Of a stretch of 64,000 nucleotides of DNA, positions 3,806-56,363 are shown one piece after another (the first letter of the stretch is position 1; every line of letters starts with the position of its first letter). Under the pieces are notes generated by a model. That model worked only from the letters and a program-made list of their open reading frames with translations. It was not told where the DNA came from and made no database searches. The position numbers and the translations under genes are program-made. The stretch comes from Gemmatimonadales bacterium (GTDB lineage: Bacteria > Gemmatimonadota > Gemmatimonadetes > Gemmatimonadales > GWC2-71-9): assembly GCA_041741375.1 (NCBI GenBank), contig JBGSKF010000143.1:18633-82632 (forward strand), read 5' to 3'.

Positions 3806-3841
3806 GGTTTTGGGTGTTGGTGCTGGGTATTGGGTGTTGGG
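3806..3841. repeat. GGGT(G/A)TT-type heptad tandem array
   Basis: gggttttgggtgttggtgctgggtattgggtgttggg. Reverse complement of the CCCAAYA array at 23342. Confidence 0.8.
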
Positions 3842-3904
3842 CCTCTCCTCCCCCCCGGGGGATCTGAGGAGATTGCCGAGGAACTGGAGGCCCCGCGGTG
3901 GCGT

Positions 3905-4441
3905 ATGCGGAGCATGCCTGACCACGGAGCCCCTGTGCTGTGCCGCTTCCATGCCACCATGACCGTGCCCCGCCCCCGGGATCAGGTCTTCGCCTTCTTT
4001 GCCAGCGCCGACAATCTCGAGCGGATCACGCCACCCGAGCTACGATTTCAGATCCTGACACCCGGACCCATCGTCATTGCGGAGGGGAGCCTGATCGACT
4101 ACCGGCTGCGCTTGCACGGGGTTCCCCTGCGTTGGCGCACGCGCATTGCGCGCTGGGATCCGCCGCGCGAGTTCGTGGACGAGCAGCTGCGCGGACCCTA
4201 TGCGGTGTGGCACCACGCGCATCGGTTCCGGGCCCTCACCGACGGCGGAACTGGAGTGGAGGACGAGGTGCTCTACCGTCTCCCTTTCGGTGTGCTCGGT
4301 CGCCTCGTCACCCCCCTGGTGCGGAGGCAGGTGGAACAGATCTTTGCATACCGGCAGGCGCGGATTCGGGACCTGCTCACCCGGGAGTTGTCACTGCCGG
4401 AGCTCGTGCATTGCCCGGGGCCGGTTGGTGATGATGCCTGA
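3905..4441 (+). CDS. SRPBCC (cyclase/dehydrase-like) family protein
   Basis: C-terminal part of ORF 3113..4441 from ATG 3905. Contains ...[21 protein letters not shown]...[13 protein letters not shown]... Confidence 0.7.
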
Positions 4442-5143
4442 TACCCCCCGGCGCCAGAGCTGGAGGGCGCGACCCGGGTCGTCCACGGTCCAGACATGGA
4501 GGGGAGCGTCGTTGCTCCGTGCCAGGGCCACGGCCCGGGTCGTGGGGATCTCGAGGCCGTGCCACTGATCGGGTACCGCGAAACAGGCCACAGGGGGCAG
4601 GGAGACGGGGAGGCGGGTCCGGGCCCGGAGTGTGAGCCGGGCGATGTCCCGCCGGGAGGCCCCGACCGCGATCGGCCCTCCGCGGAACACGCCGAGGGCC
4701 CGGTGCTCGAAGGCGGCGACCACCACTCGCTTCGCGGCTCCGAGTCGCGTGACCACTTCGACCACCGCCGACTGCGCCGCTTCGGCCTTGATCTCGATCA
4801 GCAGCGGGAGGTCCCGTACTCCGTCCAGCACCTCCGCGAGGGAGGGCACCCGGACCTGCCGGGCGGCCCAGGTTGCATCGGAGTGGCGGGCTCCGGCGTT
4901 GGCCCGCTGGATCTCGGCCCAGGTGAGCGCGGCGACCGATCCGGTCCTGTCGGTGGTCCGGTCGAGAGTGGGATCGTGAATGACGACAGGGATCCGGTCG
5001 CGGGAGAGGTGGACATCCAACTCCAGGGCGTCGGCTCCATCCTCGAGGGCACACTGGAACGCGTCCAGTGTGTTCTCGGGTGCGCGATCAGAGGCACCCC
5101 GGTGGGCGATGACGAGCTGGACCTTCGGGTCGGTGAGCAGCAT
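4391..5143 (-). CDS. glycerophosphodiester phosphodiesterase family protein
   Basis: ORF 4391..5143. N-terminal [14 protein letters not shown] and [17 protein letters not shown] are GDPD hallmarks. Confidence 0.8.
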
Positions 5144-5252
5144 CAGGGGCGCATCGAATGACCATCGGGTGGAAGTGACGACGACCGCAAGCTACCTTCC
5201 TGACCGATCCTCCGACAGCCGTCACCCCCTCCAGACCTGGAGCCCACCCGCG

Positions 5253-6926
5253 ATGCCCTCCCCCTCCTCCCCCTCGTCCGACCCATTCTCCCTCAACCGG
5301 CGCAGCTTCCTCAAGTCGGGTGTCGCCGCCGGGGCCCTCACCGCGTCAGGAGCGACACTCGGCGCGGCGTGCGCTCCCGCCGCCCCGCCCGTGGATCCGT
5401 CCCGGGCGGCGCCCCCCGCCTTTGCCCTCGACGAGATCACGGTCGATGAACTGCAACGCCGGATGGCGTCGGGGGCGCTCACGGCGGTCTCCATCACGGA
5501 GCAGTACCTGGGCCGGATCGCCGCGGTCAACCGAGAGGGACCGAACCTCCGCGCGGTGCTGGAAACCAATCCCGATGCCCTCGCGGAGGCGGCGCGGCTC
5601 GACCAGGAAAGGAAGGATGGCCAGGTCCGGGGGCCGCTGCACGGGATCCCGATCCTGATCAAGGGGAACATCGCCACCGCGGACCGGATGACCACCACCG
5701 CGGGATCGCTCGCGCTCGAAGGAGTGATCGCCCCCGCCGATGCCTTCCTCGTGTCCCGGCTGCGCGAAGCGGGCGCCATCCTGCTCGGCAAGTCCAACCT
5801 CAGCGAATGGGCCAACTTCCGGTCCACCCGAAGCAGCAGCGGTTGGAGCGGGATCGGGGGACAATGCCGCAACCCCTACGCGCTCGATCGAAACACGTCG
5901 GGATCGAGCTCCGGTTCCGGCGCGGCGGCGGCAGCCAACCTCGCCGCGATCACGATAGGCACCGAGACCGACGGATCGATCACCTCGCCCTCGGGGGTCT
6001 GCGGCGTGGTCGGAATCAAGCCCACCCTCGGGCTCGTGAGCCGAACCGGCATCATCCCCATCGCCCACAGCCAGGATACCGCCGGCCCCCTGGCGCGCAC
6101 CGTTCGGGACGCCGCCATCCTCCTGGGGGCCATGGTGGGAACCGATCCGGCGGATGCGATCACCGAGGCGGCGGCGAGCCGGGGAGTGACCGACTACACC
6201 CAGTTTCTGGACCCGACCGGGCTTCGGGGCGCCCGGATCGGCGTGGTCCGGAAGGAGTACTCCGGGTTTCACCCCCGGGCCGATCTGGTTTTCGAGAGCG
6301 CCCTGGAGGCCCTGAAGGCCGGCGGGGTGGAACTGGTCGACCCGGCCGACATTCCCACCGCCGGCCAGTTCGATGAAGCGGAATACGAAGTGCTCCTCTA
6401 CGAGTTCAAGGCCGATCTCGAGGCGTATTTCGCCTCGCTCGGTTCCTCCACCTCACTGCGGACGATGGCTGATCTCGTCGCCTTCAACGAGGCCAACGCC
6501 GAGCGGTCGATGCCCTGGTTTGGACAGGAGATCATCATCGCCGCGGCCGCCAAGGGGCCCCTCACCGATCCCGCCTATCGGACGGCGCTCGCGAACTCCA
6601 AGCGGCTCGCCGGGCGCGAAGGAATCGATGCGGTGATGGATCGCCACCGGCTCGACGCCCTCGTGGCGCCCACCAACGCTCCCGCCTGGCCGATCGATTT
6701 GATCAATGGAGATCACTACCTGGGCGGAAGCTCGTCTCCCGCGGCCGTGGCGGGATACCCCAACATCACGGTGCCCGCCGGCGCGGTGTTCGGCTTGCCT
6801 GTCGGCATCAGCTTCTTCGGCCGGGCTTTCAGCGAAGGGGTGTTGCTTCGGCTGGCCCACGCCTTCGAGCAGGCCACCACCCGGCGGCGGCAGCCGACCT
6901 TTCTGAGGACGGTGGATCTGGGGTAG
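5253..6926 (+). CDS. amidase (amidase-signature family) with Tat signal
   Basis: ORF 4980..6926 trimmed to ATG 5253. Twin-arginine signal NRRSFLKSGVAAGAL, plus the amidase signature region GSSSGSGAAAAANL...GTETDGSI. Confidence 0.85.
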   Translation: MPSPSSPSSDPFSLNRRSFLKSGVAAGALTASGATLGAACAPAAPPVDPSRAAPPAFALDEITVDELQRRMASGALTAVSITEQYLGRIAAVNREGPNLRAVLETNPDALAEAARLDQERKDGQVRGPLHGIPILIKGNIATADRMTTTAGSLALEGVIAPADAFLVSRLREAGAILLGKSNLSEWANFRSTRSSSGWSGIGGQCRNPYALDRNTSGSSSGSGAAAAANLAAITIGTETDGSITSPSGVCGVVGIKPTLGLVSRTGIIPIAHSQDTAGPLARTVRDAAILLGAMVGTDPADAITEAAASRGVTDYTQFLDPTGLRGARIGVVRKEYSGFHPRADLVFESALEALKAGGVELVDPADIPTAGQFDEAEYEVLLYEFKADLEAYFASLGSSTSLRTMADLVAFNEANAERSMPWFGQEIIIAAAAKGPLTDPAYRTALANSKRLAGREGIDAVMDRHRLDALVAPTNAPAWPIDLINGDHYLGGSSSPAAVAGYPNITVPAGAVFGLPVGISFFGRAFSEGVLLRLAHAFEQATTRRRQPTFLRTVDLG

Positions 6927-6982
6927 GGAGTAGGGAATAGGGAATTATAGGGAATAGGGAATAGGGAGTAGGGAGTAGGGAT
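6924..6982. repeat. TAGGGA(A/G) heptad tandem array (about 8 units)
   Basis: tagggagtagggaatagggaattatagggaatagggaatagggagtagggagtagggat. The first triplet is the amidase TAG stop. Confidence 0.9.
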
Positions 6983-7057
6983 CTTGGGGCTCTCACAGAT
7001 CCCACTCCCTTCAAACGTCACAGTGGATCTCCAGGCCGCGAACGAACTCTCCCTTCC

Positions 7058-9237: not shown

Positions 9238-9316
9238 GTCATTCCCGCGAACGCGGGAATCCATTTTCCTCCTCAATCCCGCGTGTACATGGATCCCCGC
9301 TTCCGCGGGGATGACG
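9238..9316. repeat. REP/MITE-like palindromic element
   Basis: gtcattcccgcgaacgcgggaatcc ... ggatccccgcttccgcggggatgac. Two internal hairpins and inverted termini. A half copy lies at 13952. Confidence 0.7.
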
Positions 9317-9335: not shown

Positions 9336-9406
9336 TCATTGATCATTGATCATTGATCGTTGGTCATTGATCATTGATCATTGGTCATTGATCATTGATC
9401 ATTGAT
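9336..9406. repeat. TCATTGA heptad tandem array (about 10 units)
   Basis: tcattgatcattgatcattgatcgttggtcattgatcattgatcattggtcattgatcattgatcattga. Overlaps the last codons and stop of the HEAT gene. Confidence 0.9.
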
Positions 9407-10885
9407 TCTTGCGATCGCCTCCTCCGCCGCACGCGCCACCACCTCATCCGAGTCCTTCTCCAGGGCACGGAGCGCGGGGACCGCGGCGGGCCCTGCCAGG
9501 GCGAGGGCACCCACCGCGCCGAGCCGCTCACTGCGCGGACGACTCCGGAAGCGCTTCGCCTCCGGCTGAGCCGCCCGCAGAATCGCCTGGATCGTGTCCG
9601 GAGTTCCGATCCGCCCCAGAGTCCGGAGCATCTCGCGCCGGACGTCGGAGTGGGTCTCCCGTTCCAGCAGCGCCGCCAGCACCATCCCGATGGAACGCCC
9701 GCGTCGCCGGCCATCGAGGTGCATCAAGGCCTCGAGGCGCACCGGGGCCGCGGGGTCCCGGAGCATCTGGCGGATCGGTTCCATTGCCTGGGAGGTGCCA
9801 AGTTTGGCCAGGGCTCCCGCCACCGAGCGACGCACCCTCTCATCCTCGTGATGAATCCTCCTGGCCAGTTCAGGGATCGCCTCCACCAGGTCCATGTCGC
9901 CGCAGAGATCCGCCGCGTTCCGCACCACGTACCACACCGGGTGGCTCAGGTAATCGATGATGATCCCCGCGTTTTCTTTCATCTGCGTCAGGGCTGTGTA
10001 ATATCCCCGCCGTTCCGCCATGCCATCCGCCGTCGCCAGCATCTCCATGAGCACCTCGGCGGAGCGGCCCCCGACGTGACGAAGCAAGGTGGTCGCTTCC
10101 CGCCGGCGGGTCCCGGTCCCCGTGGCTCGCGCCAGACGGTTCAGTGCCTCACCCCCGATCAGACGCTGGAGCTCGATCCGGCAGGTGCGCTGGAACTCCT
10201 GGGTCGCGGCCGACACCAGAAGTTCCTCGATGGCCACTCCCACTGTGAGAAGGTCATCCCACTGCTCGGTGTCCCGGGCCATCGTGCCCCTCTCGACCAG
10301 ATGGGCGAGTTCCTCCCGGGCCGGGGAGGTATCCACATCCACCGGGGCGGATGCCCCTTGGACCAGGTCGAAATCCCGGATCAGGTCGGCTGTGGTCTCC
10401 TCCCCATGCGAAACGACACCACTCGCCGGCGCCGGGGAACTCTCCAACGTGATGGGATCCTCCGCGGCCAGGTTGTGGATGACCAGATCGGTCCCGCTTT
10501 CACGCAGCGTCACCTGGGTCCTGACGGCATCCCCGAGAGAACCGGCGAACGAGGCGAACGAGGCGTACGTACCTCCCGGTGCCGCCAGAGCGCGTGCCAC
10601 TGCCAGGACAGGTCCCTCGCCACAATTCCGGGGGAATTCCACGACCCCGACATGGTGGATCAGCAATGTATCGCTGAGAAGGGTCGCGCCCGGGGCCTCG
10701 GGGTGGATCGCATGCCCATTCACCCAGAGGGTCCGGACCTCCGCCGCCATCGAGAGCCCCGTTTCGGCGATGCCTTGCAGAACGCGGTCGGTCACGGCCC
10801 GGACGGTTCGATCCTTACCCGGAATGTGGCCGAGAACGTGCACCAGAAGGGCGAAATCCGTTGTCAAGATGTGCGGCGTCATCAT
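9392..10885 (-). CDS. HEAT-repeat domain protein
   Basis: ORF 9392..10903 (TTG); first ATG at 10885. The C-terminal half shows HEAT-like repeats: VRRSVAGALAKLG, VRLEALMHL, VRREMLRTLGRIG, VVARAAEEAI. Confidence 0.65.
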   Translation of the reverse strand: MMTPHILTTDFALLVHVLGHIPGKDRTVRAVTDRVLQGIAETGLSMAAEVRTLWVNGHAIHPEAPGATLLSDTLLIHHVGVVEFPRNCGEGPVLAVARALAAPGGTYASFASFAGSLGDAVRTQVTLRESGTDLVIHNLAAEDPITLESSPAPASGVVSHGEETTADLIRDFDLVQGASAPVDVDTSPAREELAHLVERGTMARDTEQWDDLLTVGVAIEELLVSAATQEFQRTCRIELQRLIGGEALNRLARATGTGTRRREATTLLRHVGGRSAEVLMEMLATADGMAERRGYYTALTQMKENAGIIIDYLSHPVWYVVRNAADLCGDMDLVEAIPELARRIHHEDERVRRSVAGALAKLGTSQAMEPIRQMLRDPAAPVRLEALMHLDGRRRGRSIGMVLAALLERETHSDVRREMLRTLGRIGTPDTIQAILRAAQPEAKRFRSRPRSERLGAVGALALAGPAAVPALRALEKDSDEVVARAAEEAIARINDQ

Positions 10886-10906
10886 GTGACGTGACCAGAG
10901 CAAGGA

Positions 10907-17057: not shown

Positions 17058-17094
17058 CAGGGGGTCTGTGAAACCCCCGTCATTGAGGTCGATA

Positions 17095-35135: not shown

Positions 35136-35136
35136 C

Positions 35137-44515: not shown

Positions 44516-44551
44516 ATTGGCGTTCCTTATGTGACCCGTGGGTGAGGCCCG

Positions 44552-45058
44552 TCAGGACGTCGCCAAGTCGCCTGGGGGTTCCAGAGGAAGGGACCCCTGC
44601 TCGACGATCGGTTTGCGGATTGGTATCCCCACCAGCCTTCCCATCTGGAGCAGCTTGGTGTCATAGGTGAGAAACTCGTCAACATCCAACTCCAGAGCCG
44701 AAGCAAGGTGAATGGCGTCGGGTGGCCTCAGGTTTTGTCCATTCGTCAGTGCCTGACGAATGAGACCCCGGGCCTCACGAGCCAGGGAGGGATGCAGCTC
44801 AATCATCTTCACCGGTGATCCCGGTACCCATAGCGCATCAATACTCTGTTCGACTTCCGGGCTCAGTGTGCGACTGTCCTTCTCTTCCTTGGCGAAAGCC
44901 ACTTCTGTCATGGAGAGAACGGAGGTGGCAATCCGGCGCTTCCCGGCGTGGGCCTGCTCAAGCAGTTCCCGCAAGTCGGCGGTGCGGTCGCGGGCCCCCT
45001 CGATATAGGAGAGGAAGAGACAGGCATCCCAATATGAGGCCGGGACATCACCAGGCAT
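44552..45058 (-). CDS. PIN-domain protein
   Basis: ORF 44552..45058. WDACLFLSYIEG...SVLSMTEV...PDAIHLASAL...FLTYD. 11-nt overlap with the upstream gene. Confidence 0.75.
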   Translation of the reverse strand: MPGDVPASYWDACLFLSYIEGARDRTADLRELLEQAHAGKRRIATSVLSMTEVAFAKEEKDSRTLSPEVEQSIDALWVPGSPVKMIELHPSLAREARGLIRQALTNGQNLRPPDAIHLASALELDVDEFLTYDTKLLQMGRLVGIPIRKPIVEQGSLPLEPPGDLATS

Positions 45059-45830: not shown

Positions 45831-46282
45831 GTATGCCCTTCCTGCCGGGAACCGTGGGATTGAGCCAAGCCGCCGAGAAATGGGGTGCCGATGGCGGATG
45901 GCGCCGCTGATCAAAATATACAGCGTTTCGGCGAGATCATGCTCTTCCTGGGGCATGCTCAGCGAACTTCGAGCAGCGTCGTAAACGGCCACCGCGCTGG
46001 TCGTTGGCGGCCCAAGTGCGTTCGAGGCGCTGTCCGGCCATCAGGGAATGATTACCTCGGGGTGTGACAATGGGAACCGTGGTTCGGCCGCCGGCTCCTC
46101 ATTCGTTGCTCCCCTTCCTCCACGGATTTCTTGTTTCCCCGGTCTCCCTCGTGCTCTTTCTGGGCGTTATCGGCATTGAGAGTCCGGCCTTCAGCGTTCA
46201 GGACGGTTTCTCCTCCAGGCTGTAATGGTCAAGTCCCAGTCTGACGGTCGGCCGCCCTTCCTGGCAAACGTGGGTAGGCTGG

Positions 46283-46917
46283 CTAGTCAAAGCAATCCGA
46301 GAGCCACCGGCTGTCGATGCGGATGAACGAGTTCACCGCGCTCGCCAGCTGCGCTCCCGGACCGGCGGAAACCGCGTAGACGCGCTTGCCGTGACGCCGT
46401 ACCGCCTCGACCGCTGGTGTGAAATCGCCGTCCGCTGAGAGTAGGTAGGCCGAATCGAATTGATCTCGTTCGGCCATGACGACCATGTCGACGGCCAACA
46501 TCACGTCGACAGCCTTCTCTACGAAGACGATCGGATTGGCATTGTGAGACGCGAGTCTCAGACAGCGCGCGATAAACTACAGGGTCGAGTCGCACCGGAA
46601 GCGTGCTCAGCAGTTGACGAAGCTCTTTCGCAACCGGTTGGGTGCGTGCCTGGATTCCAGTCGGCCGAAATGAATCGAGACCCTCGCATCTGAGGCCTTC
46701 AAAGCATCTACGAACCTCCGTTGCTTTGCGTACAGGTCAGGGTTTCCTTGCTGCTTTACCTCCCGATGTAGTAGCGAATCCCGGACAAGCTCCTTGGTCC
46801 GAGCAGCTTTGCGGCAAGTTTCGTGTAGCTCAACTGGAACAGATCGCTGAGGCCGATGTCCTTCAGCGAGTGGTACCAATTGTTGCCGTCGATGAAGAGG
46901 ACCGCGCGACCCGGCAT
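46283..46917 (-). pseudogene. NYN/LabA-like domain gene with at least three frameshifts
   Basis: Own translation gives four segments in different frames. (1) MPGRAVLFIDGNNWYHSLKDIGLSDLFQLSYTKLAAKLLG...YYIGR, ending in a stop. (2) VKQQGNPDLYAKQRRFVDALKASDARVSIHFGRLE. (3) AKELRQLLSTLPVRLDP. (4) NPIVFVEKAVDVMLAVDMV...SADGDFTPAVEAVRRHGKRVY. Confidence 0.7.
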
Positions 46918-47371
46918 GCAGGAGAGTCCTGGGGAAGAAGAACCCCGGCGTGTGGCCTTGCGACCAGACCCCGGGGGGATAAAGCCGATCTCCCGTGAGA
47001 GACCGTAGTTGAAAGATCGGCCAGCGGCTGCAAACTGTCAAGTTGCAGCACCAGCCAACCGTCAAGTGTTGCTTGACAGTTGCGTCCCGGCCGAGCTCAC
47101 CATTCTCATAAATGCTTTGTGCATAAACACTTACATTTCCGATTCTTCGGGTTTCGCGTGGGCCCCGGGGCTCTTGCCCTGGGCTCGGCGGGCGGGGGGC
47201 CGTTCACAAGGCCGGGTGCTCCTCGCTGCTCCCGGTGGTGTGACTCACCTCACTCGGCCGAGCAAGGGGCGTCAGCCAGTGCCGTGGGGCGGTTCTCGGA
47301 TGCCCAGAATCCCGTCATGCCGTGAACGAGCGTGTTCCGGGACCCGGTTCCGCCCTCATCGCCACCGGTTG

Positions 47372-47584
47372 TCAGTCCCAGTCGATACCATCGATGATGC
47401 CGGAAAAGTCGGCTCGTTGCCTCACGATGCCGATGAATTTGTGCGTTGGCTGGAACTCGGGTTCTTCATGCCAGTCGAATTCACGTTTTCGTCCGTCGAT
47501 CACCGGTGGCGCGGAGGACGCCCGACGGGGTGAGTCGACCGAAAGCGTGACGGTTCCGGGTACGTGGCTCTCGGTGTCGTTCAT
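47372..47584 (-). CDS. small hypothetical protein (second gene of a coupled pair)
   Basis: ORF 47372..47584. ATGA overlap with the upstream ORF. No recognised domain. Confidence 0.4.
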   Translation of the reverse strand: MNDTESHVPGTVTLSVDSPRRASSAPPVIDGRKREFDWHEEPEFQPTHKFIGIVRQRADFSGIIDGIDWD

Positions 47585-47931
47585 AACTGTGAAGTATCGG
47601 GTTCCGGGGGTGTTCGCGCAACCCAGTCGCCAAGCGCCCCGACCCGGCGAAGGGCGGCAAGCACCTCGGGAGGAAGTTCGTCACCCAGTGCATAAGATCC
47701 ATGGCTGCTCTCATGGCCGTACAGACCGGCGAGGTTCAACGTTCCATCGCGCCCCACCGCGATGGCGAGGACACGTCGGGGACCGAAATCCCACTCGAAA
47801 CGGAACTCGCCGTCCTGGTCGATCGCCACATAGGGCCGGGCAACGCATGCAGGGAGGGAACGCACGAAGCGCCACGCGCATGGCATGGTGCCGGGACCAA
47901 CCAAGGGCGTATCGTTGGGCGGCGCGGTCAT
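47581..47931 (-). CDS. hypothetical protein (first gene of a coupled pair)
   Basis: ORF 47581..48120. ATG candidates at 47931, 48045 and 48120. Core sequence YVAIDQDGEFRFEWDFGPRRVLAIAVGRDGTLNLAGLYG. Confidence 0.4.
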   Translation of the reverse strand: MTAPPNDTPLVGPGTMPCAWRFVRSLPACVARPYVAIDQDGEFRFEWDFGPRRVLAIAVGRDGTLNLAGLYGHESSHGSYALGDELPPEVLAALRRVGALGDWVARTPPEPDTSQL

Positions 47932-48254
47932 TCCCCGTACTCGTGACTGGAGGGATGCCTTCAAGGTAACGGGAACGACCGAGTCGAGCAAGCGGGAAAT
48001 GAGAACATAAACTGTTTTGTTGCAAGACGTTACGATGGTTGGCATCGGATCCGCTCCTGTCGAGCCACGAGAATGGCGCCTCAGTTGTGACGTGATCCCT
48101 AAAGTGTGGTTGCGTAGCACGAATCATGCTGTGAAGGATAGGAGATAGCACTTTCAGGGGACATTGCGCACATTTTCGGCACAAAAAGCACATTGCGGTT
48201 GCTATATTGTTCTCCAGGTGCTGGATGTCACTCTCCCGAAGCCCAGGAAGAACG

Positions 48255-49610
48255 ATGCTCCTCTCCTTTCGCTTCAAGAACTTCCGCTCGTTCAGGGACG
48301 AACAGGAATTCTCGATGGTGGCGAGCAACCTGAAGGGCCCCACCGAGCCACTCATCGAGACCGGCCGGAAAGACCTGAAGGTTCTTCCCGTGGCGGCGGT
48401 CTATGGGGCGAACGCCTCCGGGAAAACGAATTTCCTCAATGCGCTCGATTTCATGGCCTGGGCCGTCCGCGAATCCTTTCGTTCCTGGACGCCGGGCGGA
48501 GGAATTCCTGTTGAGCAGTTCAAGCTCGATACCGAGGGTGGCGTGCAGGCGATGCGTTTCGAGGTTGACCTGCTCCTCGACGCGGTTCGCTTCCAGTACG
48601 GCTTCCGCCTCGACCCCTCGCGCATTCTCGAAGAGTGGCTTTATGCGTTTCCGGAAGGGCGGCGTCAGCTCTGGTTCAGCCGTGAGCACGGTGACAGGAC
48701 CGAGCAGTTCAAGTTCGGGAAGAACCTGACCGGTCCGAACCAGTCGGTTCGTGAGGTGACGCGAGAGAACAGCCTCTTCCTCTCTGCAGCGGCGCAGAAC
48801 AACCATGGACGGGTTTTTCCAGTTTACCATTGGTTCGCGCATTACCTGGATGTCATCTGCGGCAGCCGGGCTGACTTGCTTCGTGATTCGACCAGGTGCT
48901 CCCTGGGCTCAGGATCACGCCAGCCGCTGATGGAGTTTCTGGCGGCTGCGGACCCAGGAATCACTAACGTCGAGTTCGAGGACGAGCCGGCAGGTATCCA
49001 GCGTTTGTTCAGATTCCCTGCCACCATTCACGAGGCATCTCGCCCGCACCATCTGCGGGCGGTAATCAACTCTGCCCCATCTCCGGGGGAGGTATCACCG
49101 AAGGGCTCCGGACTCCGCCCGGGCAGGACCACCCTTCCCGGGGTTCCGAGAATCACCTTTTCGCACTCCACAGGAGTGGGTGGGGCGGAGGTCAAGTTCG
49201 GGATCGAGGAGGAGTCTGAGGGAACCCGCGCCATCCTGGCCCTCGCGGTTCCGATCGTCCTCTGTCTGGAGCGAGGTAGTGTTCTCCTGGTTGACGAGCT
49301 GGAGGCGAGTCTCCACCCCTTGCTCGCCCGGGAGGTGATCCGGCTCTTCAGCCGGCGGGAGTCGAACCCGCGAGGGGCGCAGCTCATCTTCAACACACAC
49401 GATACGAATCTGCTCGATCCCGACCTCCTGCGGCGCGATCAGATCTGGTTCTGTGAGAAGGATCGTGAGGGAGCATCCAGGCTCTATCCACTCTCGGACT
49501 TTCGGCCGAGAAGAATGGAAAACGTGGAGCGTGGCTACCTGCAGGGCCGTTACGGGGCCATCCCGTTTCTCGGAGACCTGATTCCCTCGCTGGGTGAAAG
49601 CAGCGAATGA
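48255..49610 (+). CDS. AAA_21/ABC-type ATPase (AbiLi-like)
   Basis: ORF 48207..49610 from ATG 48255. MLLSFRFKNFRSFRDEQEF, Walker A GANASGKTN, Walker B LLVDELEASLHP, FNTHD. Confidence 0.85.
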   Translation: MLLSFRFKNFRSFRDEQEFSMVASNLKGPTEPLIETGRKDLKVLPVAAVYGANASGKTNFLNALDFMAWAVRESFRSWTPGGGIPVEQFKLDTEGGVQAMRFEVDLLLDAVRFQYGFRLDPSRILEEWLYAFPEGRRQLWFSREHGDRTEQFKFGKNLTGPNQSVREVTRENSLFLSAAAQNNHGRVFPVYHWFAHYLDVICGSRADLLRDSTRCSLGSGSRQPLMEFLAAADPGITNVEFEDEPAGIQRLFRFPATIHEASRPHHLRAVINSAPSPGEVSPKGSGLRPGRTTLPGVPRITFSHSTGVGGAEVKFGIEEESEGTRAILALAVPIVLCLERGSVLLVDELEASLHPLLAREVIRLFSRRESNPRGAQLIFNTHDTNLLDPDLLRRDQIWFCEKDREGASRLYPLSDFRPRRMENVERGYLQGRYGAIPFLGDLIPSLGESSE

Positions 49611-50254
49611 GTCGTGGCCGAGGGCGGGGAGGAAGCAGGGAGAACCTCCGGAGGAAGCCACCCACTCGTGACCCCCGCCCTCGCATTCTGGTGCTGTGCG
49701 AGGGCGCGAAGTGCGAGCCTGGCTACCTGAGGGCGTTCTGCCGACATTTCCGAGCTACGTCGGTCGTTCTTGACAAGGCGGCCGGTCTTGATCCCAAGGC
49801 ATTGGTGGAGGTCGCGCGTACTCGCCTTCGGGAATCCCGGCGCGAGGCGAAGCAATATCGGGACAAGAACCTGGAGTTTGACCAGGTATGGTGCGTTGTG
49901 GATGTCGACGATCACCGCCGATTGCAGGAAGCTCGGATCATGGCGCGGGACAATGGCATCGAGCTCGTGATCTCGAACCCCTGCTTCGAGTTGTGGCTGA
50001 TCCTGCATTTTCGAGATCAGACAGCGTACATCGACCGGTTTCAACTCAAATCGGCGTGCCGGAACCTGTCGGAGAGCGACCGCGCTGGATATCCACCGTT
50101 TGCGATCTGCGTTTCTCACTACGACACGGCGGTTGGCCGGGCCCGGCAACTTGACGACCGCAACGACAGGGATGGCGAGCCGGGCAGGAACCCCTCGACG
50201 AGCGTGTACCGCCTGACTGAACGGATTCTGGAGATCGTGAACCTTTCGACCTAG
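49607..50254 (+). CDS. RloB-like protein (AbiLii-like)
   Basis: ORF 49607..50254. ILVLCEGAKCEPGYL... and VWCVVDVDDH are typical of the RloB family. 4-nt overlap with the ATPase. Confidence 0.8.
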   Translation: MSRGRGRGGSRENLRRKPPTRDPRPRILVLCEGAKCEPGYLRAFCRHFRATSVVLDKAAGLDPKALVEVARTRLRESRREAKQYRDKNLEFDQVWCVVDVDDHRRLQEARIMARDNGIELVISNPCFELWLILHFRDQTAYIDRFQLKSACRNLSESDRAGYPPFAICVSHYDTAVGRARQLDDRNDRDGEPGRNPSTSVYRLTERILEIVNLST

Positions 50255-50591
50255 CAGGCTCACCGGCAGAGCGTAACGGAGACATCCGGTGCTTCGACGC
50301 TTGCTGCACCCCGGTGGGCGGTCCCTGGCGGGACGACCGTGGGGCCTCGCGGTTCCAGGGTAGCGCCTCCGGCGCAACCCTGGGCTCAAAGAACGATGCC
50401 CCGTTGGGGCATGGGGACGGATTTCGGCGTATTTCGGACACCGAGTTCGGTTTTGGTCATATAGCGCTCAAAGACGCAATGGCCTGACTGATGGTTCGAT
50501 TGTTGCGATTGTTGCGATTATGCCGTATCTTGTGTCTGCGGACGTAGCGGACAACGAAAGTCTCATTATTGACCTTGGGAGGAACCCCAAC

Positions 50592-51050
50592 ATGCTTCCC
50601 GCCACTCATCGCCCGAACGACCCTGCGGTCCCCAGTACCGAGGATGCGCACCTGGCCGAACAGGGCAGCCGATTGCTCGCTGCCTGCATCGGGCGGGGGC
50701 CCACGGCCAGACTGCGGGTCATTGACGGGGAAAAGGACATCACCGTGCCCGTCGCGGCACTCCATCTCCTGGTGGACATCCTCGCGCAGATGGCCCGGGG
50801 CAACGCGGTGACCGTCGTCCCGATCAACGCCGAACTGACCACCCAGCAGGCGGCCGATTTCCTCAACGTCTCCCGTCCCTTTCTCATCGGCTTGCTGGAA
50901 CAGGGAAAGGTGCCGTACCGGAAGGTGGGCACCCACCGGCGGGTGCGGTTCGATGACTTGGTCAAGTACCGCGAGGTGAGCTTGGCGGATCAGAAGGCGG
51001 CGGCTGATGAGCTGACCAGACAGGCACAGGAACTGGGGCTGGGATACTGA
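50592..51050 (+). CDS. excisionase/MerR-type HTH antitoxin
   Basis: ORF 50520..51050 from ATG 50592. LTTQQAADFLNVSRPFLIGLLEQGKVPYRKVGTHRRV. Confidence 0.7.
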   Translation: MLPATHRPNDPAVPSTEDAHLAEQGSRLLAACIGRGPTARLRVIDGEKDITVPVAALHLLVDILAQMARGNAVTVVPINAELTTQQAADFLNVSRPFLIGLLEQGKVPYRKVGTHRRVRFDDLVKYREVSLADQKAAADELTRQAQELGLGY

Positions 51051-51053
51051 CGG

Positions 51054-51623
51054 GTGGCCAGTTTCGTCGCGGTGTTCGACGCTTGCGTTCTCTACCCGGC
51101 TGCGGTCCGCGACCTGCTCGTCCGGTTGGGCAAGTCCGGGCTCTTCCGGGCTCGATGGTCCGACCTGATTCACGAGGAATGGGTCGGGTCTCTCCTCGAA
51201 CAGCGACCGGATCTCAACCACAATCAGCTTCAGCGCACCGTGGCACTTATGAACAGGGCAATCCCGGATGCCACGGTGACGGGCCACGAGGGTCTCATTG
51301 AAGGGCTGCATCTGCCGGATCCGAAGGACCGGCACGTCCTTGCAGCTGCGATCAGATGCCAGGCGGGTGTGATCGTTACCTACAACCTCAGAGATTTTCC
51401 ATCCGACGTGCTCGACCTCTACGGGCTCGAGACCCAGCACCCCGACGAGTTCGTCACCCATCTGTTCGATCTCGACCCGGCACGGGTCTGTGCGACTGTC
51501 CGGGATCAGCGGGCCGCGCTTCGATCACCACCGGTGTCCTTGCCAGAGCTGCTGGACACCTTCCGGCACGCAGGCCTCGCGACCTCCGTGTCGGCGCTGG
51601 AGTACATGTCGGAGCTGCTCTGA
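51054..51623 (+). CDS. PIN-domain toxin with C-terminal extension
   Basis: ORF 51054..51623 (GTG). VFDACVLYPA...DPKDRHVLAAAI...IVTYNLRDF. Confidence 0.75.
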   Translation: MASFVAVFDACVLYPAAVRDLLVRLGKSGLFRARWSDLIHEEWVGSLLEQRPDLNHNQLQRTVALMNRAIPDATVTGHEGLIEGLHLPDPKDRHVLAAAIRCQAGVIVTYNLRDFPSDVLDLYGLETQHPDEFVTHLFDLDPARVCATVRDQRAALRSPPVSLPELLDTFRHAGLATSVSALEYMSELL

Positions 51624-51627
51624 GCCC

Positions 51628-54516
51628 TTATGCGAGTACCCACCGGATCGTGAACAGCGTCCGCCGGGCGGTACTCTGCTCCAGCTTCCCCTCGATCCCC
51701 TCGATCAGGGCGTCCCGCCGAGCATCGATCGCGTCCTGAGCCTCGAAGAGAGTGCGTCGCTTCTGGTTCCGCTGGGTCTCCAGCGTCTTGATCCGCTTCT
51801 GGCCCTCCAGCTTTTCCTCCAGCGTCTGCATCAGCGCCGCCGCCCGCCGTGCCTCGCGGATCTCCCGGTCCATTTCCTTGATATCCCGTTCCAACCCCAC
51901 CTTCAAGTCGTCCGCCCAGCCGTCCAGCTTGGTCGCCTCGGCCTCGAAAAACCGGGCATTCCGTTCCGAGATGGTCCGCCGGATCTCCCCCTCCTGCTGC
52001 CCCCCGATCGCCGCCAGCGATGCCGGCACGTTCTCGGGATCGGCCGAGCCGGTGACCATGCCAGGAAGCGACAGAAGCCGCGAAACGATGTCGGGGTCGA
52101 GTGCCTCCCCGGTGTCGGTCTGTGCCGCCAGCAGGATGTGGTCTTCCCCCTGATCGAGCGTCTCGATGCTCAGCAGCGTCGCTGTCAACCAGCCGGATGT
52201 CCCGACCAGCGGCTCCAGAACGGAGATCCTCCCCTCATGGTCACTATACCGGAACTCGACCGTCGCAGGCCGGAGTGTGCGTGCGCCCGCGCGCTCCAGC
52301 AGCCACTGCGCCAGGGGGTGGCTCAAGCGGTACAGGTGCGCGTCGCCGGTCCGGCGGGGGAGTTCGTACCGCCCCAGGGGGACCTCGGTGTCCAGGACCC
52401 CGTCCGGCAGGCGGTGCAGGTCGAAACTCGCGTCGTCCAGAAAGTCTGCGTCCGCGCCGAGCTCGTGGCGGGTCAGTTCGATGAGCAGGCGTTCGTACCG
52501 GTTGAGTGAGGCCCTGGCGTCACTGTCGCGGGTCCGGAGTTTTTCGCGGACCTCGTCGTCGAAGTTCTCCAGGAGCTGTTGCCGGGTCCGTGCCATCGAT
52601 TCGCTGATTTCCAGGCTCAATTCCAGCTGCAGCTCATCGAAGGCCTGTTGAATTTCCTCGGGATGCCGGCAGGTCTGGTAGATGGCCGCGATCCGCTTCT
52701 CGAAATCAACTCCCGATTCCAGGGCGCCCAGGATGTCATCGCTGGCCCCGAAGACTCCCTCGAACAGCCGGAACTTCCGGGACAGCAGCTCATACACCCG
52801 TTGATCCGCTGCGTTCTTGCGGTTGATGAAGTTGACCACCACCACGTCGTGCCGCTGGCCGTACCGGTGGCACCGCCCGATCCGTTGTTCGATGCGTTGC
52901 GGGTTCCAGGGGAGGTCGTAGTTCACCACCAGGGAACAGAACTGCAGGTTGATCCCCTCGGCGCCGGCCTCGGTGGCGATCATGATCCGGCCCTGTTCGC
53001 GGAAATAGTCGACCAGCGCCGAGCGCATGTCCGCGGTGCGGGAGCCGGTGACGTGCTCGGTATCGCGATGCCGCTCGATCCACTCGGCGTAGATCGCCCG
53101 GGAGCGCTCGTCGGTGTTGGAGCCGTTGAACAGGACGATCCCCTCGCAAAAGGGGCTGTCCATGAGCAGGCGGAGGAGGTAGCTCTGGGTCCGGCGGCTC
53201 TCCGTGAAGATGATCGCCTTCTCGGCGCCGCCCAGCTCGGCGGTCCGGCGGAAGGCGACCTCCAACGCCCTGATCAGAGCCTTTCCCTTGGCATTGTGCT
53301 CGACGGAGGTTGCCAGCGCTATGAACGTATCGAGGTCCGCCATCTCGTGAACGATGCTCTCGCGGTCCTCGGCGGAAAGATCGTCGCCCGGAGGATCCTC
53401 CGGCCATTCCTCGGCCGTTTCGTCCAGCGCTTCGTAGTCGTGGTCCAGCTCCTCATCCAGTCGCTCCGACGGTTCCTCCTGTTGGAGTCGGCGGTGCAGG
53501 CGCTCCCGCATCGTCGTCAGGGCGCCCGCAATGGCGAAAGTCGATGACGCGAGAAGTTTCCGCAGCACCAGCGTGATGAGGGACCGCTGGCCGGCGGGGA
53601 GGGCCTGCAGGTTGGGGCGCTGCAGATACTCCGACACGAGGTGGTAGAGCCGGTCCTCGCCCTCTTCGGGGGTGAATTCTTCCACGAGAGGGAGCCGCCG
53701 GGTGTACGGGATGTAGGCGGTCACCTGGCGGCGCAGGGTTCGATGGCAGAGGGGACGGAGGCGGGCCCGCAGCTGGTCGAAGGCGCCGGGATGGTCCAGC
53801 GAGGAGAATTGGTCGCGGAAGCTCCGAATATCCCCGAAGAGATGATCATCGATGACGCTGACGAGCCCATACAGTTCCATCAGCGAGTTCTGAAGGGGCG
53901 TGGCGGTCAGCAGGAGCTTGTGACGTCCGGCCAGGGCCTGCTTCAGGGTATTCGCGATGACGTTCGCCGGTTTGTATACGTTGCGGAGGCGGTGGGCCTC
54001 GTCAATCACGACCAGATCCCAGGGCACGGAGCGGACGTCGTCCGCCTTGCTGCGGGCAAACTGGTAGGAACAGATGACGATGTCGGGCGCTTCGAACGGT
54101 CGGACCTCTCCCTGCCTGACAGAGGCGTTGTAGGACCTCGATTCCAGGATGCGGCAGGGAAGGAAGAACTTTTCGGTGAGTTCCTGCAGCCACTGCTTGC
54201 GGAGATTGGCCGGGGTGATCACCAGGATCCTCCGCTTCCGTTCCGCCCACCGTTGGGCCATCACCAGGCCCGCTTCGATGGTCTTTCCCAACCCCACCTC
54301 ATCGGCCAGGAGGGCTCCCTGGGCCAGGGGCGACGCGAAGGCAAAGAGGGCCGCATCCACCTGGTGCGGGTTCAGATCCACCTGCGCACTGGCCACGGCA
54401 CCGGCCAGGCGCTCGGGACTGTCCGGCGGGAACCGGCGGGTGAGCTGGTGGGCAATGAACATCGCGTGATAGTCCGTCAGCATCGTCACACCACCTCCGT
54501 TTCCAGTCATGGTCAT
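51628..54516 (-). CDS. SNF2-family helicase with long C-terminal domain and coiled coil
   Basis: ORF 51628..54516. LADEVGLGKT, VVIDEAHRLRN, LLLTATPLQN, helicase C QRIGRCHRYGQ. About 340 aa of C-terminal extension ends in a coiled coil. Confidence 0.9.
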   Translation of the reverse strand: MTMTGNGGGVTMLTDYHAMFIAHQLTRRFPPDSPERLAGAVASAQVDLNPHQVDAALFAFASPLAQGALLADEVGLGKTIEAGLVMAQRWAERKRRILVITPANLRKQWLQELTEKFFLPCRILESRSYNASVRQGEVRPFEAPDIVICSYQFARSKADDVRSVPWDLVVIDEAHRLRNVYKPANVIANTLKQALAGRHKLLLTATPLQNSLMELYGLVSVIDDHLFGDIRSFRDQFSSLDHPGAFDQLRARLRPLCHRTLRRQVTAYIPYTRRLPLVEEFTPEEGEDRLYHLVSEYLQRPNLQALPAGQRSLITLVLRKLLASSTFAIAGALTTMRERLHRRLQQEEPSERLDEELDHDYEALDETAEEWPEDPPGDDLSAEDRESIVHEMADLDTFIALATSVEHNAKGKALIRALEVAFRRTAELGGAEKAIIFTESRRTQSYLLRLLMDSPFCEGIVLFNGSNTDERSRAIYAEWIERHRDTEHVTGSRTADMRSALVDYFREQGRIMIATEAGAEGINLQFCSLVVNYDLPWNPQRIEQRIGRCHRYGQRHDVVVVNFINRKNAADQRVYELLSRKFRLFEGVFGASDDILGALESGVDFEKRIAAIYQTCRHPEEIQQAFDELQLELSLEISESMARTRQQLLENFDDEVREKLRTRDSDARASLNRYERLLIELTRHELGADADFLDDASFDLHRLPDGVLDTEVPLGRYELPRRTGDAHLYRLSHPLAQWLLERAGARTLRPATVEFRYSDHEGRISVLEPLVGTSGWLTATLLSIETLDQGEDHILLAAQTDTGEALDPDIVSRLLSLPGMVTGSADPENVPASLAAIGGQQEGEIRRTISERNARFFEAEATKLDGWADDLKVGLERDIKEMDREIREARRAAALMQTLEEKLEGQKRIKTLETQRNQKRRTLFEAQDAIDARRDALIEGIEGKLEQSTARRTLFTIRWVLA

Positions 54517-55679
54517 GATGGTGCGCCAGGGTTCGTCACCCGCCGCACCGGCACCTGCTGCCTGAGCACATCCGCGCCGGCAGCATAGCCACGCTCTGAT
54601 CGGCTGGCGAGGCCCATCGCGACCAGCGTCTCCAGATCCCGCTGCAAAGTCTTCCCCGACAGCGTTGCGTAGTCCCGGGCAATCGCCGGTGTCAGTTCCA
54701 TGACCTCCCTCACCGTGAGTACCCGGTCCCTCGGCAGCGCCAGCGCCAGCCGTCGTTGCCGCACGAAGGCCGACTTTTTGGTGTACTGCTTCTCCGCGAA
54801 CTGGTCGTAGATCAACTTGATCCAGGTGATGTCGAACTGGTTGGCTTGAATGGTCTGGAGAGTGCGCAGGAGCCCGTCACGAAACCCCTGGACCGCGTAG
54901 TCGATGAACGCGCTGAGATCCCGGCGGTCATGGGCCAGTTGGATCTGGCGGTAGTACTCCGTCCGCGTCTCGTTGTAGTGATTGGAGAGGATGTGCGAGG
55001 CGATGTCGGGGTTCCCCGCCCGCAGCAGGAGGTAGAACTCGACCAGGCGGCCAGTGCGTCCGTTGCCATCGGCGAAGGGGTGGATCCACTCAATGTACAC
55101 ATGGGTCACGATGGCCTGGATCACCGCCTCCGCGAAGGTTTGACCGTCCTCATACCGGAACTGCCGCGGCAGCCAGTCACAGAGCCGGGTCACCAGTTCC
55201 GGCACGTCCTGGTATGCCGGGGTGCGGTAGGGCCCCACCCGCCGGTGATCTTCCCGAAAGCGCCCCGGGATGGCATCGAAGTGCGGGCCCAGCTCCTTGC
55301 CGATCATCTGGTGGAAGCGGCGGAGCAGATCCGCCGAGATGCGTTCGGCGTTCCCCTGGACGGCCACCTCCTGGAGCAGAATGTTGAACGCGTCCAGGAT
55401 GTTCCGCACCTCCTGCTCCTGGTACTGCTTGCTGGGCGGGAGAGACTTTCCCTCGACGACCTGCTCAATCTCCTCCTCGGAGAGGGTGTTGCCCTCGATG
55501 GCGGTCGTGGCTTGAGCCCCCTTGGTCAGGGATACCAGCAGCAGGCGGCGATGGTACTCCGGCAGGAGCGGGGCGTTGGCGATCGCCTGGACGATGGCGT
55601 CGCACTGCCCCAGCTCGTAGTGTGTTTTTGAGCTGAGGTTCCAGTGCCTGTTGAAGTGGAGGTGATCGTATGCACTCAA
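54513..55679 (-). CDS. Fic-domain protein with N-terminal inhibitory motif and C-terminal winged helix
   Basis: ORF 54513..55679 (TTG). Fic motif HPFADGNGRTGRL. (S/T)xxxE(G/N)-type motif TTAIEGN. ATGA overlap with the SNF2 start. Confidence 0.9.
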   Translation of the reverse strand: MSAYDHLHFNRHWNLSSKTHYELGQCDAIVQAIANAPLLPEYHRRLLLVSLTKGAQATTAIEGNTLSEEEIEQVVEGKSLPPSKQYQEQEVRNILDAFNILLQEVAVQGNAERISADLLRRFHQMIGKELGPHFDAIPGRFREDHRRVGPYRTPAYQDVPELVTRLCDWLPRQFRYEDGQTFAEAVIQAIVTHVYIEWIHPFADGNGRTGRLVEFYLLLRAGNPDIASHILSNHYNETRTEYYRQIQLAHDRRDLSAFIDYAVQGFRDGLLRTLQTIQANQFDITWIKLIYDQFAEKQYTKKSAFVRQRRLALALPRDRVLTVREVMELTPAIARDYATLSGKTLQRDLETLVAMGLASRSERGYAAGADVLRQQVPVRRVTNPGAPS

Positions 55680-55703
55680 GACATCACCCCGGACAGTTGA
55701 AGA

Positions 55704-55727
55704 GACAAATAATATAGCCTATTTGTC
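55704..55727 (-). promoter_or_regulatory. perfect 8-bp inverted repeat overlapping a TATATT box upstream of fic
   Basis: gacaaata (55704-55711) and tatttgtc (55720-55727). On the minus strand it reads gacaaataggctatattatttgtc, about 25-50 nt before the TTG start. Confidence 0.4.
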
Positions 55728-55840
55728 CCCTACGCTATAACGCTATGCGTGTCAGCCTGATAGTAAATCGCTTTTATTATGACATTCTGGACAATAAAGT
55801 GGACATTTCCTTGGATAATCCTGCCGGAGACAAGGACGAT

Positions 55841-55891
55841 CTGCGCGAGAATGTCCACCAGGAGATGGAGTGCCGCGACCGGCACGGTGAT
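55841..55891 (-). pseudogene. fragment of an HTH-antitoxin gene, inverted copy of 50739-50789
   Basis: 49 of 51 nt match the reverse complement of 50739-50789. Encodes ITVPVAALHLLVDILAQ, then diverges without an HTH. Confidence 0.6.
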
Positions 55892-56242
55892 GATCAGATC
55901 GTGACTCACAGGCTGGCGGCCTGGCCGCAGAGCGGCCGCTTCACTGTACTGGTTCCCATGGCTGAAGCCGCAGGCCATCTCCTGTGGCCCAACCCCAGAT
56001 CCTGTCCTAATACTAGAGTCATGATTGTGATCTTATTCTGATGTGTTGCTCTATCTGGTTGGATTGCAATGCTTTATGCCATGCAACGATCTTTCTGACC
56101 ACTGTGCACCATGAAATACTTTCACGGTGATAGGCGAGCCCAGTAGCCCGCAGGGCTCCGGTGGCCAGGCGGGTAGGGGAACCAGTCTGGGCAGAATTCA
56201 CTCTGCGTCGTCGGTGTCATCAGTGGTTTCTTCCGGGGGGGG

Positions 56243-56292
56243 TAGGACATAGGACGTAGGACATAGGACGTAGGACATAGGACATGGGACAT
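56243..56292. repeat. TAGGAC(A/G) heptad tandem array
   Basis: taggacataggacgtaggacataggacgtaggacataggacatgggaca. Confidence 0.85.
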
Positions 56293-56304
56293 TGTCCCAA
56301 ACAC

Positions 56305-56363
56305 CCCACTCCCTACTCCCGATTCCCTACTCCCTACTCCCGATTCCCCACTCCCCACTCCCT
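56305..56363. repeat. CCCTACT-type heptad array
   Basis: ccccactccctactcccgattccctactccctactcccgattccccactccccactccc. Confidence 0.85.

Follow-up and report, generated by a model that had tools for sequence, protein, structure and literature searches.

The cyanobacterial heptanucleotide repeats STRR1 (CCCCART), STRR2 (TTKGTCA) and STRR3 (CAACAGT) were reportedly described by Mazel and co-workers in 1990. In this study we analysed tandem arrays of 6-7-nt units in a stretch of 64,000 nucleotides (hereafter the window) from an uncultured Gemmatimonadales bacterium of the phylum Gemmatimonadota (metagenome-assembled genome GCA_041741375.1, contig JBGSKF010000143.1, positions 18,633 to 82,632), and their closest described counterparts are the intergenic G-rich heptamers of GC-rich Xanthomonas (GGGAATC) and of Nostoc (GGGGAYT) reported by Rehm et al. 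(2015, PMC4692102). The G-rich strand of those repeats is the sense strand within 50 bp after a stop codon, or the antisense strand within 50 bp upstream of an open reading frame (ORF); they form G-quadruplexes (G4) by circular dichroism (CD) and are transcribed, and no function was found for them (PMC4692102). In Xanthomonas 83-90% of the loci are common to several species and lie in more stable gene contexts (PMC4692102), and three heptamers are on record from Calothrix, as cited in the same paper. Heptanucleotides were the most abundant long simple sequence repeats (SSRs, units of 5-11 nt) in the work of Mrazek (2007), as summarised in PMC4692102 and PMC4679880; they are commonest in large high-GC genomes of non-pathogens and have a sporadic phylogenetic spread, and it was suggested that they arise by slippage tied to the polymerase footprint. 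TAACTGA repeats are present in marine Beggiatoaceae, cyanobacteria and Bacteroidetes (MacGregor 2015, PMC4679880), Geobacter metallireducens carries 49 copies of an element with four GGGACCG units (PMC2700814), and the heptamers upstream of recO and recF of Nostoc have modest reporter effects (bioRxiv 10.1101/2022.06.06.494920). This class of arrays is already described from Xanthomonas, cyanobacteria and Geobacter, and Gemmatimonadota is a new host phylum for it; no publication was found on such repeats in that phylum. The initial annotation of this DNA knew of no description for a GC-rich lineage, which is contradicted by the published Xanthomonas G4 heptamers with the same placement (PMC4692102) and by the heptamer excess of Mrazek in large high-GC genomes, as relayed by PMC4692102 and PMC4679880.

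The arrays of the window (Table 1) resemble the Xanthomonas and Nostoc repeats in having one G3-4 tract per 7-nt unit, in their intergenic position and strand placement, and in copy-number variation between relatives; the published repeats can likewise have a GC-rich host and have 2-26 units, and single arrays and inverted pairs are common to both. At least four consecutive tracts of three or more G with loops of up to 7 nt, the tract pattern of Rehm et al., were found in A2, A5, A6, A8, A9, A10 and A12, and their placement was found at stops for A1, A2, A8, A9 and A10 and at starts for A6 and A12. The units, on the other hand, are GGGARTA, GGGTRTT, GGGGCTG and GGGAGTA instead of GGGNATC or GGGGAYT, the 64 kb contain a mixture of several G-rich and non-G families, and the phylum is a different one. 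Unlike in Xanthomonas, the loci are not conserved, units being replaced between conspecific strains and arrays being absent from relatives at 79-83% identity. As with the cyanobacterial STRRs, several types of tandem heptamer are found in one genome: A3 contains two exact TTGGTCA (STRR2) units with the rest one base off, a contig of a related strain (L212) has exact TGACCAA (STRR2), and A1 and A6 are one base from STRR1, while the other units are unrelated and about 0.8 near-matches would be expected by chance for eight families by our estimate. Unlike the STRRs, most units are not the canonical three, and the host is not a cyanobacterium. HIP1 (GCGATCGC), a hallmark of cyanobacteria, is not enriched in the window (3 observed versus 4.5 expected), and the best protein matches, for the MacB/FtsX permease encoded at 35137-37584(-) and the M42 peptidase, are metagenome-assembled genomes (MAGs) of Gemmatimonadota; a cyanobacterial origin of the window was rejected on these two grounds. 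The arrays also belong to the long SSRs as a class (a head-to-tail unit of 5-11 nt, longer than composition predicts), which is a statistical class and not a mechanism; Gemmatimonadota is not among the genomes discussed in the published summaries of that work. The TAACTGA and GGGACCG systems likewise have heptamer arrays that abut coding boundaries, are patchy across phyla and are of unproven function. Unlike the window, they have one dominant unit per genome, and the TAACTGA arrays lie mainly just upstream of start codons in forward orientation.

The arrays exist, they change their copy number in situ, they are turned over between strains, and the G-rich ones show a G-specific polarity towards genes. 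All eleven arrays listed by the initial annotation were recovered in place by Tandem Repeats Finder (TRF), with 5-14 copies per array, scores of 46-128 and lengths of 37-108 bp. Period 7 outnumbers the neighbouring periods in the window, with nine arrays versus two of period 6. When the window was simulated 50 times with a second-order Markov model, no array of period 6 or 7 scored at least 46 with at least five copies (0/50), and the top simulated score was 37.

Single arrays were compared with contigs of conspecific strains (96-100% amino-acid identity for the permease) and of more distant relatives. At the A8 site, strain contig L002 carries no more than the seed GTAGGGG at the base of a hairpin; four AGTAGGG units are present in L130, and eight in the window, inserted into the arm of this pre-existing hairpin. 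The copy number of the A4 hexamer varies between strains as well, because L002 has three units at the site where the window has six. At the stop codon of the permease gene, GGTAGGG/AGTAGGC units follow directly 3' of the stop in the window and L001, a TGTTGGG/TATTGGG array is found in L129, an array beginning GGGGCAGG is found in L131, whose contig ends there, and L002 and L130 have an ACAATGA/TCAATGA array, the same five units in both with differing patterns of the two variants. Some array is thus found at this stop in all five conspecific strains, and none in the 83% relatives. Upstream of the gene starting at 56376, L131 has GGGTATT/GGGTACT where the window has the AGTAGGG-type A12, in identical place and orientation. 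Right after the stop of the M42 peptidase gene, the 93% relative L008 has an ACAATGA array; the window has TCATTGA (A3) 130 bp further on, and the 79% relative L007 has a 7-bp gap with no array and no arrays in its 21 kb. Therefore, arrays are born locally, change length fast and are replaced within the species. Four of the short-read contigs from Logan (L001, L008, L129 and L131) end inside or right at a heptamer array, and so the arrays fragment assemblies and will be under-counted in MAGs.

Gene context in the window was derived from codon statistics, from Pfam and from the gene calls of relatives. The polarity holds in seven of seven cases, with the G-rich strand sense at stops (A1, A2, A8, A9 and A10) and antisense before starts (A6 and A12). 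The initial annotation had placed the arrays at gene 3' ends with the G-rich strand sense at 3805, 6924, 26560, 28017 and 35035; all five of these cases hold. As a description of the whole set the 3'-end position does not, because the array at 22079 is coding and those at 23342, 56305 and 19552 lie 11-26 nt upstream of starts. The G-rich strand is the plus strand for two arrays and the minus strand for five, and the cumulative GC skew rises across the entire window. With G-rich strands on both strands under a uniform skew, orientation tracks genes and not replication; a replication-linked orientation was rejected, and the earlier idea that the arrays punctuate replication is not supported.

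For the wider distribution, GGGARTAGGGARTAGGGARTAGGG was scanned against one genome per species, and at least 120 stretches (0.97 Mb) were obtained. Filamentous cyanobacteria were the most frequent hosts among the matches listed, and exact (TAGGGAR)4 arrays were common in them; the other matches listed came from Gemmatimonadota, Planctomycetota, Acidobacteriota, Chitinophagaceae, Anaerolineae, Elusimicrobiota and a Thermoplasmata archaeon. These 0.97 Mb of array-bearing loci contain at least 377 period-7 arrays of at least 109 unit types by TRF, against no more than 38 arrays for each other period. Of the 235 non-ascertained heptamer arrays among the loci listed, only 48 contain a run of G or C, and the 7-nt register, not the quadruplex, is therefore the property that they share. 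Eighty Gemmatimonadota loci (572 kb), chosen through the M42 peptidase as an unbiased sample, contain 23 period-7 arrays, distributed over 14 loci (40 per Mb), and among arrays of at least four copies period 7 was the commonest (18 versus at most 11 for any other period). The density in the window (nine in 64 kb) is about 3.5-fold above that of this sample (Poisson p=0.0014). Inverted array pairs, an array with its exact reverse complement 18-47 nt apart, were observed in other Gemmatimonadota and one Planctomycetota genome (L177 7996-8096, L182 4383-4494, L193 7830-7906 and L055 2997-3081); they could form long hairpins.

The strand census was made on the listed loci of at most 55% G+C, with 113 usable arrays carrying a G or C run. 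Each array was swapped for filler with stops on both strands, by which both orientations were treated alike, and ORFs of at least 100 amino acids (aa) were called. A gene lay within 30 nt on the 5' side of the G strand in 60 cases and on the 3' side in 9. Where arrays abut a stop the G strand was sense in 43 of 51 cases (43 versus 8), and where they abut a start it was antisense in 17 of 18 (17 versus 1). The non-G arrays with a stop codon on one strand only were divided 13 versus 10 (Fisher p=0.018 against the G-rich set). As the non-G arrays have no polarity, the bias is real and tied to G-richness. The strand and position bias relative to stop codons, by which the initial annotation had proposed to judge its idea, is accordingly present among the loci listed, for G-rich units only.

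Table 1. Tandem repeats of the 64-kb window and their gene context.
Feature	Position	Strand	Repeat unit and copies	Program	Gene context
A1	3805-3841	+	GGGTGTT/GGGTATT x5.4	TRF	28 nt past stop of ORF 3075-3776(+), 98 nt before SRPBCC gene 3940-4431(+); co-directional genes; G strand sense
A2	6924-6981	+	TAGGGAR (TAGGGAA) x7.9	TRF	First TAG is stop codon of amidase gene 5253-6926(+); convergent gap, minus-strand gene ends at 7058; G strand sense
A3	9336-9406	-	TCATTGA on +, TCAATGA on -, x10.1; no G-runs	TRF	Encodes last 4 codons and TGA of HEAT-repeat gene 9392-10903(-), ARINDQ then stop versus TVVSD then stop in a relative; between this stop and two hairpins, of which 9241-9260 is the terminator-like site of the M42 peptidase gene
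A4	19550-19586	+	Hexamer CCCGTA/CTCGTA x6.2	TRF	Between genes that are both on +, with the preceding stop 36 nt and the following start 26 nt away; C-rich strand sense
A5	22078-22112 (feature 22065-22118)	+	Hexamer CCCTCT x5.8	TRF	In frame within lipoprotein signal peptide (MASLSQPLSLSLSLSLSLLLGC) of gene 22059-23294(+)
A6	23342-23386	-	CCCAATA/CCCAGTA on +, TATTGGG/TACTGGG on -, x6.4	TRF	47 nt past stop of gene 22059-23294(+), 11 nt before putative ORF 23398-24531(+); G strand antisense
30-bp repeat	24752-24836	+	30-bp unit with hairpin GGGCGAATgtgATTCGCCC and CCCTAC, x2.8	TRF	
A8	26560-26615	-	CCCTACT-type on +, AGTAGGG on -, x8.0	TRF	7 nt past stop of abhydrolase gene 26623-27579(-); inserted in 5' arm of hairpin GGGCGAAT; G strand sense
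A9	28017-28054	-	CCCAGCC on +, GGGGCTG on -, x5.4, 100% perfect	TRF	Last ~13 codons (GLGAGGWGLGAG) of ORF 28008-28706(-); G strand sense
A10	35035-35142	-	CCCTAC-type on +, GGTAGGG/AGTAGGC on -, 14-nt super-unit x5.6, ~14 units		Includes TGA stop of MacB/FtsX permease gene 35137-37584(-); G strand sense
A11	56243-56292	+	TAGGACA/TAGGACG x7.1; no G-runs	TRF	83 nt upstream of abhydrolase gene 56376-57236(+)
A12	56304-56363	-	CCCTACT/CCCGATT/CCCCACT on +, 21-nt super-unit, x8.6	TRF	Ends 12 nt before GTG start of abhydrolase gene 56376-57236(+); G strand antisense

Sorted by sequence, the G-rich arrays form fewer families than the initial annotation had listed. RTAGGG-N comprises A2, A8, A10 and A12 (6924, 26560, 35035 and 56304), and TRYTGGG comprises A1 (3805) and A6 (23342); in total at least eight unrelated units are present within the window, the G+C content of which is 60-71%. 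Higher-order periods of 14 and 21 nt were detected by TRF in A6, A10, A11 and A12, and since several arrays score best at these periods, blocks of two or three units have been duplicated. The coding hexamer A5 stands outside the intergenic heptamer class; the L002 orthologue of its gene keeps an imperfect form of the repeat. The genes flanking the arrays are metabolic or housekeeping genes of unrelated functions. The 30-bp repeat at 24752-24836 is the local seed of A8; its hairpin GGGCGAATgtgATTCGCCC recurs at 25763, 25793 and 26543. The idea that CCCTAC arrays are generally paired with a REP-like hairpin (GGGCGAATnnnATTCGCCC) was rejected, as this hairpin is limited to 24.7-26.6 kb. The arrays are not CRISPR, because the units are contiguous with no unique spacers, nor telomeric repeats, because they are short (37-108 bp) and internal with genes on both sides, and no tRNA or Rfam match was found in the window.

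The most probable origin of these arrays, in our judgement, is slippage: they would be long SSRs of heptanucleotides, and in two cases hexanucleotides, and transcription or translation would act as a filter on the orientation of the G-rich units. Each array would arise from a short seed already present at the site, in many cases the stop-codon sequence, and would then grow and shrink by slipped-strand mispairing or unequal exchange. Units that fold when looped out would be favoured, as G-quadruplexes for G3N4 units and as hairpins for units with TGATCA or GTAC cores. The arrays would persist only where they are harmless, in intergenic gaps and dispensable last codons, and selection linked to transcription or translation would keep G-rich units sense after stops and antisense before starts. 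We infer slippage as the engine, structure as its promoter and the nature of the orientation filter from the patterns described above. Several points weigh against this origin. Slippage itself was not observed, and the preference for 7 nt is unexplained. Three features argue that some arrays at least are maintained and not just tolerated: the strong G-specific polarity, an array at the permease stop in all five strains, and the persistence of (GGGGCTG)n at the gene end in the deeply divergent A9 family (32-75% aa identity). The positions of A6, the 30-bp repeat, A8 and A10 coincide with synteny breaks relative to L002, which slippage does not predict. The census on which the polarity rests used a crude ORF caller and non-independent arrays, mostly from cyanobacteria.

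The first alternative to the slippage origin, which takes up the idea of the initial annotation, is that the G-rich arrays function as quadruplexes, formed either in RNA or in the non-template DNA, at the 3' ends of mRNAs, where they would define or protect the ends or pause or terminate transcription, and would be kept off the sense strand of 5' untranslated regions (UTRs). The G-rich arrays are quadruplex-competent in computation. The strict motif of four G3+ tracts with N1-7 loops is found in seven of the eleven arrays (A2, A5 in coding sequence, A6, A8, A9, A10 and A12; at 6920-6989 for A2 and 23342-23372 for A6), and the earlier statement that the arrays mostly match this consensus is correct to this extent. 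It does not extend to A1, which has five G-runs with one 11-nt loop that breaks the motif, nor to A3, A4 and A11, which fail outright, A4 having three C-runs only. The absolute G4Hunter scores of the G-rich arrays, a scoring proposed by the initial annotation, are 1.2-2.7. In the G4 model of ViennaRNA a quadruplex is part of the minimum-energy fold of seven arrays, A1 (weak), A2 (two predicted quadruplexes), A6, A8, A9, A10 and A12, the strongest being predicted for A9 (-57.8 kcal/mol). By the same program A3 folds as a hairpin through its TGATCA palindrome (-22 kcal/mol) with no quadruplex and A4 (GTACGR) as a hairpin through its GTAC palindrome, and A11 (TAGGACA) is predicted to be unstructured. 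A long hairpin of A11 with A12 was rejected (z=-1.2, not above shuffles). The whole window has 23 G4 motifs versus 15.5 +/- 3.8 in simulations, an excess that is accounted for by the arrays, and a run of three G or C is present in 7/9 period-7 units against 0.32 expected from base composition (p=0.006).

The A9 gene family is the main reason for which a function of this kind is kept alive, because the persistence of its array contrasts with the turnover elsewhere. ORF 28008-28706(-) is a genuine gene, with 37 homologues among 1.8 billion representatives, and the family is about 220-300 aa long with no Pfam or NCBIfam match. Of thirteen homologues retrieved (32-75% identity), twelve end in ...RxGLGAGGW(GLGAGGW)..., which is the three-frame translation of (GGGGCTG)n, the first repeat being mutated in P0252 (GLGTPGW). 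The thirteenth, P0280, has (GEWGVGS)n, the translation of the different G-rich unit (GGGGAGT)n, so that a G-rich array with at least 3-4 G-tracts stands at the 3' end of every retrieved member. The flank beyond the array (GNCGAARATARCGA) is conserved, and the tail may follow any one of its three frames, giving AKIAK or RR, each followed by a stop, or [AD]E[DN]S... The DNA was compared in two members, that of the window and one in L212 (8001-8669), which have a perfect heptamer register and the conserved flank with proteins only 39% identical. Frame shifts in A9 change only a tail of 2 to about 45 residues (the longest in P0244), counted after the last repeat-encoded residue. Contingency loci for phase variation were rejected, since arrays stand after stops or in last codons and A5 is in frame. 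The AlphaFold model of the A9 protein is confident, with a pLDDT of 78, and its best PDB match, the AraC-type CdpR (5chh), is not significant (E=0.15); the C-terminal half is possibly AraC/HTH-like, judging from sequence. A terminator-like hairpin is located about 45 nt downstream of the A9 gene (about 27935-27960). Both A9 and A3 stand between a stop codon and such a hairpin and are therefore in the 3' UTR, which agrees with a quadruplex element there, as do the predicted competence, the G-specific strand and position polarity and the CD-proven quadruplexes of analogous repeats (PMC4692102). A terminator-like hairpin (CCCCGGGGCtctcGCCCCGGG, then TTT) is part of a short dispersed element found at 27919-27973, at 47163-47238 and in L212 at 2747-2801, with copies 82-91% identical. 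The arrays as intrinsic terminators were rejected: no terminator-like site overlaps any array in the window, and the site counts are at or below shuffle expectation.

On the other side, non-G arrays occupy identical positions (A3 and A11; ACAATGA in L002, L130 and L008), the 79-83% relatives keep the same genes without arrays, units differ between conspecific strains, and Rehm et al. found no regulatory role (PMC4692102). Quadruplex formation as the common denominator fails on the non-G arrays at the same positions, such as the ACAATGA array at the permease stop in L002 and L130, and quadruplex function cannot be the general explanation of the arrays. For a subset of them, a quadruplex function at mRNA 3' ends is plausible; as an account of the G-rich arrays we regard it as unlikely, with a chance that still has to be taken into consideration. 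It is more doubtful, but conceivable, that the G-rich arrays are maintained punctuation of gene boundaries read by a machinery common to distant phyla, which may be a helicase, nuclease or RNA-binding factor specific for G4 or G-tracts that sets mRNA 3' ends. If this were true, three observations would be signatures of function and not of tolerated slippage: the retention of the array in the A9 family, in which the tail meanwhile switches among the three frames, the arrays at the permease stop, and the G-specific polarity.

We consider it improbable that illegitimate or ectopic recombination accounts for the arrays, as its hot spots or its scars, and that they mark the insertion or exchange of foreign DNA. 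A6, the 30-bp repeat, A8 and A10 are within 50 bp of the synteny breaks relative to L002: A6 is at the edge of a 1.3-kb segment missing from L002 and A10 at the edge of 7.5 kb missing from L002 and L130, where this segment replaces their ACAATGA array. The same unit families are present at more than one locus, so that ectopic pairing between them could take place. Nevertheless, the region is hypervariable anyway, with defence genes, toxin-antitoxin modules and duplications, breakpoints and arrays are both intergenic and their overlap is not clearly beyond chance, A1-A4 stand in conserved gene order, a 15-kb island (40357-55365) has no array at its junctions, and the Xanthomonas repeats are in more stable contexts (PMC4692102). 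The association of arrays with synteny breaks is only suggestive; given the intergenic position of both and the variable island around them, a link is not claimed.

Several features of this neighbourhood were observed in addition. The 7.5-kb segment (27589-35143) has a lower G+C content and CarboxypepD_reg-domain genes, and lies between the permease and abhydrolase genes, which are adjacent in L002 and L130; a paralogous cluster with six heptamer arrays in 16.7 kb is found on L212, which is a second contig from the genome of L002. A duplication in tandem (24568-26615, about 1 kb, 96-99% identical) spans a PIN-toxin module and carries the 30-bp repeats with GGGCGAATgtgATTCGCCC and 8-9-nt repeats (CACAGAGA and CTTCGTGC), and the small repeats are also found in L002. 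L002 lacks the block at 40357-55365, and the junction is precise; the block codes for a type III restriction Res-like helicase, an N6/N4 DNA methylase, a PIN protein, an AAA_21 and RloB pair, an HTH_17 and PIN_3 pair, and an SNF2 helicase with a Fic protein after it, and resembles a defence island. Direct repeats with 87-89% identity form two dispersed pairs, one at 17028-17314 and 19057-19343 and the other at 37937-38178 and 40219-40460; the latter pair overlaps both the left island junction and the Res-like ORF at its 3' end. The protein of ORF 40212-42896 gave no exact record on look-up.

That the arrays are multimeric binding sites, read in 7-nt registers by a protein or an RNA, and together form a transcriptional or post-transcriptional regulon, appears very improbable. 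Such a role was proposed for the TAACTGA repeats of Beggiatoaceae (PMC4679880) and the recO and recF heptamers of Nostoc (bioRxiv 10.1101/2022.06.06.494920), and here the arrays abut start or stop codons and TAGGGAR and TGACCAA (= STRR2) recur in distant phyla. One reader protein, however, cannot fit so many unrelated units as the at least eight of the window and at least 109 of the scanned loci, units are swapped at orthologous sites, and the flanking genes are functionally unrelated. Least credible of all, and next to negligible, is that the arrays are fail-safe stops, in which a 7-nt unit with TAG or TGA would give a stop in three frames per 21 nt and catch read-through or frameshifted ribosomes in a stop-poor GC-rich genome: TAGGGAR, AGTAGGG, TCAATGA, ACAATGA and GAAGTGT do carry a sense stop, at or within 12 nt of the real stop, but GGGTGTT, TATTGGG and GGGGCTG have none, and in the non-G arrays with a stop on one strand only the stop strand was sense at 13 gene ends versus antisense at 10.

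Our results extend a poorly understood and widespread class of repeats to Gemmatimonadota. The strains of this species offer a natural experiment, with one, four and eight copies at one site and unrelated units at another, in which the birth, growth and replacement of arrays can be measured. The breakage of short-read assemblies at the arrays is a practical effect of the class. The G-specific polarity, seen again in an independent sample of several phyla, and the retention in the A9 family are the best arguments for a role of some of these repeats at the RNA or DNA level. The A9 array is an exception that merits attention amid the general turnover, and the arrays point to constructs with which quadruplex function in bacteria may be tested.

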